A stretch of DNA of 64,000 bases from Phycisphaerae bacterium (GTDB taxonomy: Bacteria > Planctomycetota > Phycisphaerae > UBA1845 > Fen-1342): the NCBI GenBank assembly GCA_963675745.2, contig CAXXWX010000026.1, forward strand, positions 160,001 through 224,000, written 5' to 3'. The position numbers were made by a program. Positions 36,001-39,000 of this stretch are shown here, one piece after another. Positions within the stretch are counted from its first letter, which is position 1. Each line of letters opens with the position of its first letter.

Positions 36001-39000
36001 CGAGGACGGCGACACCGGCCCGATCAATGGCGATGGCGTACCGCCAAGCTGGTTCGCATGGGGCCCCGAGAGCGGCTGGCATCACAACGACGCCGGCAAG
36101 GTCATTGATACCAAGGCCGTGAAGTTCTGGTGGGATGACGTAGGCCTCTGGCAGGATGTCGCCGTCGTCGGTGGCACCGAGTACGACTTCAGCGTGATGG
36201 CGTTCAATTCCACCGATGATCTACTCACCGGCTGGAACGGGCTGCTGAGAGCCGAGTTTTACGACAGCACGGTCGGCACCGATCCGGGCGACGTGCTCTC
36301 ATCGGTGCAACTTGACCGTTACTACTCGGCGACCGATCCGGTGGACGCGTGGGTCGAGATCAGCGGGCCTGCAACCGCGCCCCCGACCGCCGACATCGGC
36401 CGCATCATCATCCAGATCGCCGACTGGCAGTCATCGGGTGTAGGTGGTTCGCTGAATTTCGACAACGCGTCGATTACGCCGGAGCCAACGTCGGCGCTGG
36501 CGCTGCTGAGCCTTGCACTATTGGCACTGCGCCGCCGGTAGTCCGGCCGCGTTGTCGCGACCGAGTGAGTGGAGGTTGGGCCGCGCGTTCCGCTCGCGGG
36601 AGCGGGTGCGTCAGGGCAGTTGTGGGCTGAATTCGCCGCCGGTCGTGTCGGGGCGAGAGTGTTTTGGAGAGCGAGAATGCGCAAGTTTGGACAGCTTCTG
36701 GTGGTGGCCGCGTTGTTGGGCACGTTCGCGAGTGCCGGCCACGCCGTCGATAACCTGTTGGTTAATCCCGGCTTCGCCGACACCGATCCGAACGTCCCCG
36801 GCTATGGTGACGGTTGGGGGATGTTTGGCGCGGCCGACTTCAACGATTTCTTCGGAAACCCGCACGCGAGCTTTTACGGCGATACCGCGGGTAATACCGG
36901 CGGCGTGTTTCAGGTGGGTCTCACCGGCGGTGCCGGCGCGACCTATCAATTCACCCTGGCGAACACGCGTATCGAGGCGAACTGGGATGCCGACCTGTAT
37001 TTCGGACTCGAATACTACGCGGCTGACGACACCACCAAGCTCGGCGAAACGCTGGTGCTCGCGGACACCGCGACACGCGTCGCGCAGGCACGCGTCGATG
37101 GAAACGTCTTCGCGATGGCGGGCACGGCGGTCACAGGGACAGCGTTCGTACGGCCCATTGTCAGATTCGACAATGTGAATACGGGCTACTCCAGCGAACC
37201 GTCCGCCAACACCTTCTTGTTCAATACCTTCCTGAATGTCGCGCCCTTGCCGGGACAGAACTACCTCAAGAACCCGGGGTTCGATGACCTGGACGGCGAC
37301 GCGGCGTTCGGCGACTACTGGTCCGCCTATGGCGCCGCGGGGTTTAACGAGTTTTTCGGGCCAAACAACCCGCACGCGAGCCTGTTCGCCGACACAATCG
37401 GTAACTTCGGCGGCGTATACCAGCAGGGGATTCTCGGAGTGGCCGGCGCGACCTATCAACTCTCACTTAGCAATGTGCGCGTCGAGGCCGACTTCGACGG
37501 TGACCTCTTCTTCGGGCTCGAGTATTACGGCGATGATGACTACACCAAGCTCGGCGAGGACATTGTCGCCATCGATACCGTCCTCACCGGGGATGGCCTG
37601 GCGTATACGATGCTTGGCACCGCTGTCACAGGTACCGTGTACGTCCGCCCGGTGGTCTTCTTTGACAATGTGCAGACCACCGGCACACAGCGCGGCGTGT
37701 TCATTTTCGACGCCACGCTGACCGAACCGGCGCCGGGCTTTAACCTGCTGCGCAACCCCGGCTTCCTTGATACCGATTCCAATGGTGAGTTCGGTGATCA
37801 TTGGGGCTCATTCGGCGCGACGGGCTTCCACGACTACTGGGGCGGCAACCCGCACGCGAGCCTGTTCGGCGATTGGTTCGACAATATCGGCGCTGTATTC
37901 CAACTCGGGCTGCCGGCGCTGCCCGGCGAGGCCTATGAGTTCGATCTGCTCGACACACGGATCGAGGAGAACTGGGATGCGGACCTGTACGCCGGCATCG
38001 AGTTCTACGCCGCCGACAACGCAACCAAGATCAGCGAGACCTTGGTGTTGCTGGACACGGCGGCTCGGCTGGCTCTGGGCCTGACCGATGGCAACGTCTT
38101 CAGCATGCAGGCCACGGCGCCCGCCGGCGCGAAGTATGCCCGGCCGATCATACGCTTCGACAATGTGAATCAGGACTACTTCGGCGATGTCGAGCAGACC
38201 AACTCGTTCACCTTCAACACGTTCATGGGCCTGGCCCCGCTGCCCGACGAAGAGCACATCAAGAACCCCGGCTTCAACGACGCCGATGGCGATGGTGGTT
38301 TTGGCGACTACTGGGGCAAGTTCGGCGCCGTCGACTTCAACGAGTTCTTCGGATCGGGCAATCCCCACGCCAGTTTCTTTGCCGACACGATCGGCAACAC
38401 GGGCTTTGTCTATCAACCGTCGATCCTCGCCATCAGCGACGCGCAGTACGAGTTCCAACTGCTCGACGTACGCATCGAGGCCAACTTCGACGCGGACCTG
38501 TACTTCGGTCTGGAGTACTACGGCGATGACAATTTCGTGAAGATCGGTGAGACCGTCGAACTAATCGATACAAGCATCACCGGCGACGGCTTGTCTTACA
38601 GCCTGTACAGCACCGCCCCGCCGACCGCGGCCTACGTCCGGCCGATTATCTTCTACGACAATGTGGGGACCACCGGCGGTGAGCAGAGAAACGCTTTCGT
38701 CTTCGCCACATCGCTGACCGAAGCGGCCGGCCTCGTCGGCGATCTGAACTGCGACGGCATAGTGAACAACGGCGATATCGACCCGTTCGTGCTGGCCTTG
38801 AACGACCCCGGCGCCTACGCCGCCGCCTACCCGGATTGCGATATCAATCTGGGAGATATCAACGACGACGGAAACGTGAATAACGGCGATATCGACCCGT
38901 TTGTGGGGCTGCTGACATCGCCGTGAGGATGAAGACCAGCGCGGCGGCGCACAATTCGTGACGCGCCGACGCCGGTCGCACTGTACAATGCGCTTGGTCG

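Follow-up and report, generated by a model that had tools for sequence, protein, structure and literature searches.

The window, that is, the whole stretch of 64,000 nucleotides analysed here, comes from the 5.2 Mb genome of a Phycisphaerae bacterium (G000). On its forward strand, at 36677..38926, lies an open reading frame for a predicted secreted, non-catalytic protein of 749 amino acids, the translation of which comprises a signal peptide, four CBM-like repeats and a C-terminal dockerin module. A Pfam search with the protein returned no family above the cut-off. The first 23 residues (36677..36745) end in GHA and resemble a signal peptide, in agreement with a crude rule based on hydrophobicity and charge. 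They are followed by CBM-like repeats of a long type of about 180 residues and a short type of about 150 residues, which a repeat alignment placed at 36746..37288 (long), 37289..37741 (short), 37742..38278 (long) and 38279..38734 (short), and which are 52-58% identical to each other. The AF2 model of the first repeat is all-beta (pLDDT 65.6), and the top rows of a Foldseek comparison were jelly rolls of the CBM16, CBM4 and CBM61 types (E from 2.5e-5, TM 0.4-0.5). Because of these pLDDT and TM values, we identify the repeats as CBM-like jelly rolls with moderate confidence.

The rest of the protein is a module with two cysteines (38735..38914, profile match E 8e-31), after which there are only the residues TSP and the stop codon. 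We refer to this module as the class-A dockerin. Its first calcium loop is located at 38741..38776 (DLNCDGIVNNGD) and its second at 38855..38890 (DINDDGNVNNGD); the two are symmetric and both have the triplet NNG at loop positions 9-11 (38765-38773 and 38879-38887). One cysteine occupies position 4 of loop 1 (38750-38752), while the other (38837..38839) is part of the motif YPDCD in the linker and is present in 154 of the 159 copies of the module in this genome.

All of these features, like the neighbouring genes, are on the forward strand. On the upstream side are a GH5 (Cellulase) gene with an uncertain start codon (33465..35897; PF00150, E 1e-24) and a gene for a small CBM4_9-like protein whose C-terminus is a PEP-CTERM tag in place of a dockerin (35921..36541). 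The two Pfam matches of the latter were below the cut-off (CBM_4_9 E 0.0038, PEP-CTERM E 0.012), and that to PEP-CTERM exceeded the threshold in a genome scan once neighbouring matches had been summed; the product bears a weak resemblance to the repeats of the focal protein (E 0.015). Downstream is the gene for a GH30 enzyme, the C-terminal tail of which is rich in Asp (39055..40854; Glyco_hydro_30 E 1e-41, Glyco_hydro_30C E 3e-13).

Fold of the module

The module of the focal gene scored 11.9 bits (E 0.26) against the Pfam family Dockerin_1, for which the gathering cut-off is 22.9 bits, and a search of NCBIfam yielded no relevant family, so that its reported invisibility to both databases was confirmed. 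In a six-frame scan, the best single match of any member of the module family to Dockerin_1 was 21.4 bits, and the few members that pass do so solely by summing two half-matches. The AF2 model, which is a prediction and not a solved structure, displays the three-helix dockerin fold (pLDDT 96.6, pTM 0.84). The 20 best matches listed by VIA-align 2 were all dockerins, headed by CaDoc0917 of Clostridium acetobutylicum (6kge_B; Z 9.0, rmsd 1.6 A over 58 of 60 residues, 36% identity), as were all among the matches listed by Foldseek. As in dockerins of the PF00404 type, each of the two tandem segments of about 22 residues consists of a 12-residue loop (D1, N/D3, D5, D12) followed by a helix, and in 53 copies the calcium ligands D4, N6, D8, D15, D42, D46 and D53 were invariant and N44 nearly so. 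The fold and the calcium-loop motifs support the type I dockerin model put forward in the first-pass annotation.

Abundance and cargo

We iterated an HMM over all six-frame open reading frames (ORFs) of the genome. At E<1e-5 it detected the class-A module in 159 ORFs, distributed over 25 of the 28 contigs, and at E<1e-10 in 155, which with an independent profile upholds the 153 proteins counted before. There was one module in 157 of these ORFs and two in the remaining 2. The module ended at most 7 residues from the stop codon in 150 of the 159 ORFs and at most 5 residues from it in 145, in line with the C-terminal location described earlier (144 within 5 residues). In four intact proteins the module is placed ahead of an FGE-sulfatase-like or RHS/YD part; it is not bound to the C-terminus, and the extreme end of the protein is not an obligatory position. 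Both cysteines were present in 144 of the 159 modules, and 60 had a third, odd cysteine without a partner inside the module. In one relative (G011), a second pair of cysteines in columns 42 and 55 co-occurred in 21 of 21 cases. Signal-peptide-like N-termini, previously assigned to 122 of 153 proteins, were recovered at the lower count of 109 of 159 with our crude rule, and a pairwise identity of 60-88% between copies had to be revised to a median of 64% with a 5-95% range of 48-77%.

The cargo was surveyed in 60 genes drawn at random from the 158 module genes other than the focal gene. Twenty of these had no recognised family, whereas the others included 10 peptidases, 6 FGE-sulfatase, 6 Beta_helix/PMP, 5 BNR/sortilin and 5 amylase/GH16/X25 proteins and 1 PAD_porph protein. 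The sample thus bears out a cargo of many proteases, FGE-sulfatase-like and beta-helix proteins and few glycosidases, as had been proposed. Metallopeptidases of the cargo include L056, a reprolysin-like protein of family M12B, and L010, a carboxypeptidase of family M14.

The public names of 119 relatives never mention a dockerin, and a precomputed match to Dockerin_1 existed for 1 of the 119. On other genome contigs the module was found at 16 loci, in MAGs labelled Planctomycetales and Phycisphaerales and on one contig of a MAG labelled 'Pacearchaeota', and the search of viral contigs gave one partial match of 16 residues.

The genome holds a second dockerin class, here called class B, with at least 13 canonical dockerins. 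The six-frame scan gave 13 sites with Dockerin_1 above the cut-off and not just the 4 genes first recorded; none of the 13 overlaps with the class-A family. In 3 proteins, a canonical dockerin immediately precedes the class-A module. Pfam-visible dockerins were detected in all 41 genomes of the order. In a module-free relative (G013), the orthologue of the M14 peptidase (57% identity) has a canonical dockerin at its end and a cohesin gene adjoining it, which suggests that the class-A module is interchangeable with a canonical dockerin.

Variation at the loop positions

To describe the variation among the modules, we compared the copies in this genome with those in relatives, for which the 30 best matches per genome to the profile built from G000 were used, a selection by which identity within those genomes may be inflated. 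The triplet at loop positions 9-11 was NNG in 130 of 159 first and 125 of 159 second repeats in this genome. Among the 30 best-matching loci of each relative, the corresponding triplets in repeats 1 and 2 were NAG in G002 (15/32 and 14/32), D/NFG in G015 (30/35 and 27/35), NGF in G024 (24/32 and 31/32) and S/TVG in G011 (28/31 and 29/31). The mutual information between genome and residue was highest at position 10, with 2.09 bits in either loop. Values of 0.85-1.02 bits followed for positions 9, 11 and 14 in the two loops and for position 15 in loop 2. Hence, in each repeat, positions 9-11 together with position 14 constitute a code that is uniform within a genome and different between genera. 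Positions 10 and 11 of each segment are the established determinants of dockerin specificity (PMC8063739), and a profile alignment matched them to the Ser-Thr pair of a C. thermocellum dockerin.

Outside of the 10 code columns, modules of one genome resemble each other no more than they resemble those of other genomes: the identity over the remaining columns was 0.58 within this genome as compared to 0.59-0.60 to three other genera. Module pairs with at least 90% identity in their DNA were rare (9 of 12,561 in this genome), and in 59 of 59 homologous cargo pairs, themselves 29-64% identical, each protein carried the code of its own genome. Taken together, these three results suggest that the uniformity of the code is due to selection rather than gene conversion. 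The claim that the modules are homogenised within the genome consequently stands for some ten columns but not for the module at large, the DNA of which shows no recent wholesale gene conversion. In the 30 best-matching loci of G025, which represent the sister family, repeats 1 and 2 are unlike each other and lack a dominant code; a single receptor for each genome may therefore be a feature of the host family only.

Phyletic distribution

The module was identified in 23 of the 24 other genomes of the host family (f1) and in both genomes of its sister family, and a class-wide sample recovered it from 10 of 12 genomes of the former family and 10 of 10 of the latter. Four other genera yielded at least 150 scored matches each as compared to 87, 36 and 32 in the three genomes of the host's own genus, and the module thus fills two sister families instead of having undergone the burst-like expansion at the genus level that had been suggested. 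Among the 30 best-matching loci per genome in five relatives, 147 of 156 modules were located within 7 residues of the stop codon. The M14 homologue in another genome (G020) ends in a class-A-like variant below the reach of the profile, so the genomes that we classify as module-poor may hold diverged versions of the module and the pattern of presence and absence is blurred to that extent.

Search for a receptor

The genome contains one cohesin-like domain (23-25 bits with Pfam; E 1e-51 with a lineage-tuned profile built from 13 lineage cohesins), which corrects the initial description of a system without a cohesin. The domain is part of a beta-helix protein (L001) that itself ends in a class-A module. 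A second cohesin was not found by hmmsearch in this genome at E<1, and another match to Pfam Cohesin (17.6 bits), in an RHS/YD protein of 4887 residues, was judged to be spurious. A complex prediction for the cohesin-like domain and the module, run without controls, scored 0.01 relative to a mark of 0.32, which speaks neither for nor against binding. Cohesins hidden in PEP-CTERM-anchored proteins were considered as well, but the hhalign probability was <5% for all 56 motif-defined PEP-CTERM proteins of the genome.

We also examined the phyletic pattern in 41 relatives with both Pfam Cohesin and the lineage profile. No match to either was found in 8 of the 19 module-rich f1 genomes, while 3 of the 6 module-poor f1 genomes had a match and the module-free G030 had 14. 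On this pattern the cohesin was rejected as a general receptor. Since the presence of cohesins does not track the module, the class-A receptor is probably something other than a cohesin, and in this respect the core of the earlier idea survives. An ordinary cohesin-dockerin system, formed either by the single cohesin-like domain or by cohesin-fold proteins too diverged for the profiles, is for the same reason unlikely, even though the module has the fold of cohesin-binding dockerins, its code occupies the classical positions of cohesin recognition, and the cohesin genes of relatives adjoin dockerin-bearing genes. The canonical dockerins can moreover account for the one cohesin that the genome has.

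Two PEP-CTERM genes, at 4519-5292 and 5327-6166 of locus L271, adjoin the cohesin gene; a search with the former also matched its paralogue in this genome. This family was rejected as a receptor: it occurs in 16 of 24 f1 genomes, including five that are module-poor, is missing from seven that are module-rich and was not found in the sister family. Judged by this distribution, the pair travels with the cohesin cassette and not with the module. The genome also encodes two giant secretins, L254 and L260, with 16 and 9 Secretin_N domains, respectively, and homologues of L260 were present in 37 of the 41 genomes of the order, so that the giant secretin, as receptor or machinery, does not co-vary with the module. 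Thus, every candidate tested (cohesin, L271 PEP-CTERM family and giant secretin) failed the phyletic test. No scaffoldin-like protein was found among 424 large ORFs of the genome outside the module family in a scan for internal repeats, combined with a Pfam search of 22 ORFs (20 high-ranking, repeat-rich ones and 2 from the window), which turned out to be TPR kinases, PAS kinases, a Big_1/invasin-like adhesin, beta-helix proteins, secretins and an RHS giant.

The module might instead be a sorting or secretion tag, comparable in function to PEP-CTERM or to the C-terminal domain of T9SS cargo, that is read, and perhaps removed, by an outer-membrane translocon or a sortase-like enzyme. Like those tags, it is a short C-terminal module on a large share of the secreted proteome, terminal in 150 of the 159 ORFs, and its cargo (C25, PAD_porph, M14, S8, BACON_2, GEVED, beta-helix/PMP, BNR) resembles the cargo of the T9SS in Bacteroidota. 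PEP-CTERM is a second C-terminal tag in this genome, on about 45-56 smaller proteins that include the neighbour of the focal gene, and a genome-specific code is also compatible with a co-evolving recognition machine. We nevertheless consider a sorting function to be rather doubtful, given the four intact proteins in which another domain follows the module and the three in which it stands in tandem with a canonical dockerin. Its fold is that of a helical dockerin and not of a beta-sandwich sorting domain, the M14 orthologue of G013 carries a canonical dockerin instead and lies next to a cohesin gene, and the giant secretin, the one machinery examined, is order-wide and does not co-vary with the module.

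It is least probable that the module lacks a dedicated protein partner and serves calcium-dependent folding or stability, or has a glycan or lipopolysaccharide of the cell surface as its ligand. In favour of this reading, genomes across the order have many more dockerins than cohesins, or no cohesins at all, published planctomycete counts (PMC6461901) show the same excess, and our candidates yielded no receptor, but a pure calcium or folding role leaves the code at positions 10 and 11 unaccounted for when the calcium ligands are unchanging, although a lineage-specific glycan ligand could account for it.

Discussion

The explanation that we favour, and which as a whole we regard as somewhat better supported than not, is that the class-A module represents a clade-specific subfamily of type I dockerins and tags most secreted enzymes and adhesins in two sister families of one order of the Phycisphaerae for docking to a shared receptor. 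Judging from the signal-peptide-like N-termini, the cargo would be exported by Sec. The intact F-hand loops suggest that the module folds around two calcium ions, and a disulfide between the cysteine at position 4 of loop 1 and that of the linker may clasp the fold. The canonical dockerin face would then plug the cargo onto a shared, genome-encoded protein receptor, possibly in either of two orientations, as the two halves of the module are symmetric. A co-evolving receptor is predicted because the code is uniform within the genome and rewritten between genera; it would be a single, fast-evolving protein different from the Pfam-type cohesin of the lineage. The cohesin of this genome more probably serves the class-B dockerins, and the beta-helix protein that carries it, docked through its own class-A module, may act as an adaptor.

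Tentatively, this would amount to a new kind of surface display in the two families, by which 100 to more than 200 proteins per genome share a dockerin-derived plug. Each time a lineage diverges, the specificity residues would change together across all paralogues and on both sides of the plug, which would imply a single, rapidly co-evolving receptor that is not a cohesin; we see this as a possible but less secure extension.

The class-A module has much in common with the type I dockerins of clostridia (CaDoc0917 of C. acetobutylicum, 6kge/6kg9; Xyn10B and Cel48S of C. thermocellum), namely two F-hand loops of the form D-x-N-x-D-G-x-V-N-x-x-D, the three-helix fold, a C-terminal location on secreted enzymes and symmetric halves with the putative specificity focused at positions 10 and 11. 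It differs from these by its score below the Pfam cut-off, its conserved cysteine pair and a longer helical linker. Furthermore, its host is a diderm, its cargo consists mostly of peptidases, FGE-sulfatase-like, beta-helix and family-less proteins, and it has no co-varying cohesin.

A 'planctosome' has previously been hypothesised for the Nemodlikiaceae, also of the Phycisphaerae (Andrei et al. 2019, PMC6461901). According to that work (supplement 3, sheet 7), the Nemodlikiaceae MAGs have up to 42 dockerins with 0-1 cohesins each, and the model is a three-protein scheme based on cohesins and dockerins visible to dbCAN. Its anchoring protein combines a cohesin with P-domains and a lamin-tail domain; in G000, the one cohesin is found in the beta-helix protein with the class-A module. 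The model shares with the present genome the non-cellulolytic dockerins, the M12B and M14 cargo (L056, L010), the great excess of dockerins over cohesins and an adaptor with both cohesin and dockerin (the L001 protein). Cohesin and dockerin modules do indeed occur with M12B and M14 cargo in this single Phycisphaerae genome. Unlike the dockerins of that model, the class-A modules, the dominant dockerins here, escape detection by Pfam, occur in about fourfold numbers, are uncoupled from the presence of a cohesin and are marked by a genus-specific code.

Large cellulosomes with multiple specificities may contain as many as 160 individual proteins (PMC13487519), and the cellulosome-like scale initially attributed to the class-A system is supported by our count. 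As in the dockerin groups of Ruminococcus flavefaciens, the number of dockerin proteins is comparable and there are several dockerin classes per genome; tandem dockerins, as in the 3 proteins found here, are also known from large cellulosomes, and PDB 8x39 was among the fold matches. The difference is that large cellulosomes have many cohesins on scaffoldins, as opposed to one cohesin-like domain and no scaffoldin-like protein found here.

A search of the literature on dockerins in planctomycetes and Phycisphaerae, mostly of titles and abstracts, found no cysteine-bearing subfamily, no genome-wide count of this size and no lineage code. What is new is a genus-specific and symmetric code at those positions by which cellulosomal dockerins select their cohesins, in a module that is confined to two families and is borne by the products of several per cent of the genes.

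Ever since dockerins were first catalogued outside cellulosomes, their occurrence without cohesins has been puzzling, and class A makes this puzzle testable. If true, the docking code (NNG, NAG, xFG, NGF, SVG) would insulate the exoproteome of each lineage and give a direct handle on the receptor. The module profile is in itself an annotation tool for the secreted and surface proteome of uncultured aquatic bacteria, including proteins without a recognised family (20 of the 60 sampled). Should the receptor turn out to be new, the toolbox of protein assembly would gain an orthogonal pair for docking in diderm bacteria, with a predicted stabilising disulfide.

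The focal gene and its neighbourhood

The focal ORF (window 36677..38926, +) translates into 749 residues. A signal-peptide-like N-terminus leads into four repeats in tandem, each about 150-180 residues long and 52-58% identical to the others. The repeats are followed by a 60-residue module (window 38735-38914, +), three further residues and the stop codon. We refer to this type of C-terminal two-cysteine module as class A. No Pfam family reached its cut-off with the full-length protein and no relevant family was found in NCBIfam; the module alone matched Pfam Dockerin_1 at E 0.26 (11.9 bits, cut-off 22.9). 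The predicted model of repeat 1 was of moderate confidence (pLDDT 65.6), and its best Foldseek matches were jelly rolls of the CBM16, CBM4 and CBM61 types (E from 2.5e-5, TM 0.4-0.5). Neighbouring genes encode a GH5 enzyme, a GH30 enzyme and, directly upstream, a small CBM4_9-like protein with a PEP-CTERM end. Because of these fold matches and neighbours, the focal gene most likely encodes a non-catalytic, carbohydrate-binding, dockerin-tagged protein within a small cluster for glycan degradation. No other class-A family member lies in the window.

The last ~125 residues of the GH30 enzyme (window 40450-40854, +) are Asp-rich with several D-x-D-x-D-G-like stretches and resemble, by eye, a degenerate dockerin or double dockerin; Pfam Dockerin_1 was absent from this protein at E<=0.1. 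Elsewhere, the window encodes a second PEP-CTERM protein at 28390-29121 (+; C26:188390-189121; Pfam PEP-CTERM 28.4 bits at C26:189056-189121), a very large multihaem cytochrome of 1804 aa at 5465-10876 (+) with six Cytochrome_C7 matches and more multihaem motifs, and a 1318-aa protein at 14181-18134 (-) that combines fn3-type repeats with a C-type lectin domain.

An abundant dockerin class

An HMM iterated from the focal module over the six-frame ORFs of the 5.2-Mb, 28-contig genome (G000) matched 159 ORFs at E<1e-5 (155 at E<1e-10), distributed over 25 contigs. The widespread C-terminal module reported in the first-pass annotation was thus recovered by an independent HMM. In 150 of the 159 ORFs no more than 7 residues separate the module from the stop; 157 contain one module and 2 contain two. 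The copies share the consensus GDLNCDGxVNNGDIDxFVLAL..P..Y...YPDCD..LAD.NGDGxVNNGDIDxFVALL; Cys occupies column 6 in 146 of the 159, column 35 in 154 and both columns in 144. Pairwise identities had a median of 64% (5-95% range 48-77%). The ORFs have a median length of 695 aa, 109 have a signal-peptide-like start by a crude rule, and 44 of 134 successive same-contig pairs of family genes are <1 kb apart.

A Pfam scan of 60 genes drawn at random from the other 158 confirmed the cargo types listed previously. Twenty had no Pfam family at E<=0.001, and ten were peptidases (three C25, two S8 and one each of M14, M6, M12B, M28 and trypsin-like). FGE-sulfatase and Beta_helix/Chlam_PMP proteins accounted for six each, BNR or sortilin-like proteins for five, starch- or glucan-related proteins for five (two alpha-amylase, one GH16, two X25) and PAD_porph for one; the remainder included FG-GAP, NHL, PKD, GEVED, an Exo_endo_phos nuclease and DUF6345. 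As a set, this cargo resembles the type IX secretion cargo of Bacteroidota.

The structure of the module was predicted with AlphaFold2 from an alignment of 53 copies (A1), yielding a model with pLDDT 96.6 and pTM 0.84. All Foldseek matches listed were dockerins, with top TM-scores up to 0.76-0.81 and E-values of at least 0.09, as expected for a short query of 64 residues. The best 20 matches in VIA-align 2 were likewise all dockerins, led by CaDoc0917 (Z 9.0, rmsd 1.6 A over 58/60 residues, 36% identity), and a profile search of PDB sequences matched dockerins weakly (best E 0.0018). In both loops, the calcium ligands D1, N3, D5 and D12 were invariant or near-invariant among the 53 copies. Judged by predicted fold and motif, the class-A module is a dockerin, and it is both real and abundant.

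Three Cys are present in 60 of the 159 modules, and 57 have at column 42 (loop 2, position 2) a Cys that lacks a partner within the module. In a relative, G011, Cys at columns 42 and 55 occurred together in 21/21 cases (14.2 expected). The class-A Cys pairs would seem to behave like disulfides.

Pfam Dockerin_1 scored above its cut-off at 13 places in a six-frame scan of G000, none overlapping the class-A family. These canonical dockerins (class B; consensus GD.DGDGDVD..D...C..GP....GC...D.DGDGDVD..D...Q) have a Cys pair of their own, and in three proteins one immediately precedes a class-A module.

Distribution among relatives

Forty relatives from the same order were searched with A1 at E<=1e-5. 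Class-A modules were present in 23 of the 24 other genomes of the family of G000 (f1) and in both genomes of the sister family (f2); elsewhere, f5 gave one weak match and the remaining eight families gave none. Counts were at least 150 in four other genera (G011, G015, G019, G021), 147-148 in G024 and G017, 111-133 in G008, G006 and G007, and 0-4 in six f1 genomes. The three same-genus genomes had 87, 36 and 32, so the genus-level burst proposed earlier does not hold; the class is family-wide. Class-A modules were found in 26 of 251 genomes across the class including G000 (f1 10/12, f2 10/10 and five single matches elsewhere), with about 250 first-look candidates in each of two genomes, and in 0 of 300 genomes of a phylum-wide sample without f1 or f2 at E<=1e-12. 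The relatives are publicly named as Phycisphaerae or Phycisphaerales MAGs; dockerin naming was found in 0 of the 119 relatives listed and a precomputed PF00404 match in 1 of 119. Class A is a new Pfam-invisible dockerin subfamily restricted to two Phycisphaerae families.

Pfam Dockerin_1 itself had matches at E<=1e-4 in all 41 genomes of the order sample, including module-poor f1 genomes (G012 66, G018 28, G013 23), with up to 76 in another family. The G020 homologue of the M14 carboxypeptidase found in G000 terminates in a class-A-like module that has diverged and is missed by the profile; "module-poor" may therefore in part mean "module-diverged".

The 31.7-kb contig JAGVWX010000009.1, from a MAG labelled Candidatus Pacearchaeota, carries four class-A modules (L087, L089, L101, L102), at least three with the NNG code of G000, and is most likely a mis-binned Phycisphaerae fragment.

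A genus-specific code

The modules of the best 30 loci each from four f1 genomes and one f2 genome were aligned to the G000 profile. Calcium-loop positions 9-11 read NNG in 130/159 first and 125/159 second repeats of G000. Among the best 30 loci, they read NAG in G002, of the same genus (15/32 and 14/32), DFG or NFG in G015 (30/35 and 27/35), NGF in G024 (24/32 and 31/32) and SVG or TVG in G011 (28/31 and 29/31); in G025 (f2) the repeats were unlike each other, with no dominant single code. Single modules from seven further genera added likewise symmetric triplets, e.g. NGG, NFD, GFG and SFG. The mutual information between genome and residue in each column, an unbiased measure, was maximal at position 10, with 2.09 bits in either loop (entropy ~0.5 bits within genomes, ~2.6 bits in total). 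The columns ranking next, at 0.85-1.02 bits, were positions 9, 11 and 14 in each loop together with position 15 in loop 2. According to PMC8063739, the established determinants of cohesin specificity are positions 10 and 11 in each segment of a dockerin; in a profile alignment those of class A coincide with the Ser-Thr pair of a C. thermocellum dockerin. The recognition positions of class A form a genus-specific code.

Of the homogenisation suggested by the first-pass annotation, only the uniformity of the code columns within G000 stood: once these ten columns were left out, identity averaged 0.58 within G000 versus 0.59-0.60 to G015, G024 or G011. Alignable module DNA pairs in G000 had a median identity of 72%, and just 9 of 12,561 pairs reached at least 90%, three being gene duplicates with similar upstream DNA. 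In every one of 59 pairs of homologous cargo, one protein from G000 and one from a relative (29-64% identity, >=150 aa), each module had the code of its own genome; these cargo families therefore already bore the tag when the genera diverged. The code changed after that split, in all paralogues and both module halves, and is probably maintained by selection rather than wholesale gene conversion. Most simply, this pattern would reflect co-evolution of the modules with a single partner that they share within each genome.

Cohesins and candidate receptors

G000 was said to be without a cohesin; it has one cohesin-like domain, at C13:86271-86441 (Pfam Cohesin 25.3 bits in the genome scan, 23.2 bits with hmmscan, cut-off 24.1). 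The 774-aa host protein consists of beta-helix/PMP repeats, the cohesin-like domain, a Cys-rich stretch that is hyalin-repeat-like by eye, and a class-A module. No second cohesin was found at E<1 with a profile of 13 lineage cohesins. A 17.6-bit Cohesin match inside a 4887-aa ORF (C13:160684-175344, -), which encodes numerous Ig-like repeats and an extended RHS/YD-repeat region, is probably spurious.

The gene for the 774-aa protein is located in a cluster (C13:85608-92300; L271 1608-8300) that also encodes a pair of PEP-CTERM paralogues and an FG-GAP-like protein. The latter has a class-B and a class-A dockerin in tandem and may be split over two ORFs. The PEP-CTERM pair is kept beside cohesin genes in G002, and the cluster looks like a conserved cohesin cassette. 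PEP-CTERM ends occur on smaller proteins in G000 (~45 Pfam matches, 56 by motif). Two such genes, at C2:110675-112502 and C22:4364-6191, have equal ORF lengths and identical C-terminal tails, which suggests redundant contigs in this MAG (estimated contamination 6.08%).

Among the rival explanations is a hidden cohesin as the partner of the class-A module. Cohesin presence does not follow the module: with a lineage profile (A2, E<=0.001), matches were absent from 8 of 19 module-rich f1 genomes (G003, G006, G007, G009, G011, G015, G016, G017) and present in 3 of 6 module-poor ones (G012, G013, G014), the module-free G030 had 14, and Pfam Cohesin agreed with this pattern. In the module-free G013, the M14 carboxypeptidase orthologous to that of G000 (57% identity) has a canonical dockerin as its C-terminal end, and its gene adjoins a cohesin gene; the two classes of dockerin can thus replace each other on a given cargo. 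The module could also be a sorting tag, but in four intact G000 proteins it precedes an FGE-sulfatase-like or RHS/YD part, which argues against an obligatory C-terminal sorting signal. The last rival is a module without any protein partner.

None of the receptor candidates tested in G000 passed. The cohesin failed, its presence across relatives not being tied to the module, as did hidden cohesins among PEP-CTERM proteins, the PEP-CTERM pair beside the cohesin gene, the repeat-rich large proteins scanned and a giant secretin, with L260 homologues in 37 of the 41 genomes of the order. The secretin is encoded by adjacent minus-strand ORFs at C24:57521-64879 and C24:64978-68487 (L254, L260), of 2453 aa with 16 Secretin_N domains and the secretin domain, and of 1170 aa with 9 more Secretin_N domains; its relatives are mostly single ORFs of 4000-5500 aa, and in G000 it appears split or frameshifted.

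A non-cellulosomal dockerin system in planctomycetes is, as a concept, already in print: Andrei et al. 2019 (PMC6461901) describe up to 42 dbCAN dockerins and 0-1 cohesins in Nemodlikiaceae MAGs and propose a "planctosome" whose cargo includes M12B and M14. Literature searches on planctomycete and Phycisphaerae dockerins and on the planctosome did not turn up the scale, the cryptic class, the missing co-variation with cohesins or the code. The best-supported reading, to which we give somewhat better than even credence, is a putative docking system in which the secreted proteome would attach through class-A modules, stabilised by calcium and a disulfide, to a shared receptor that is probably other than the cohesin of the lineage.
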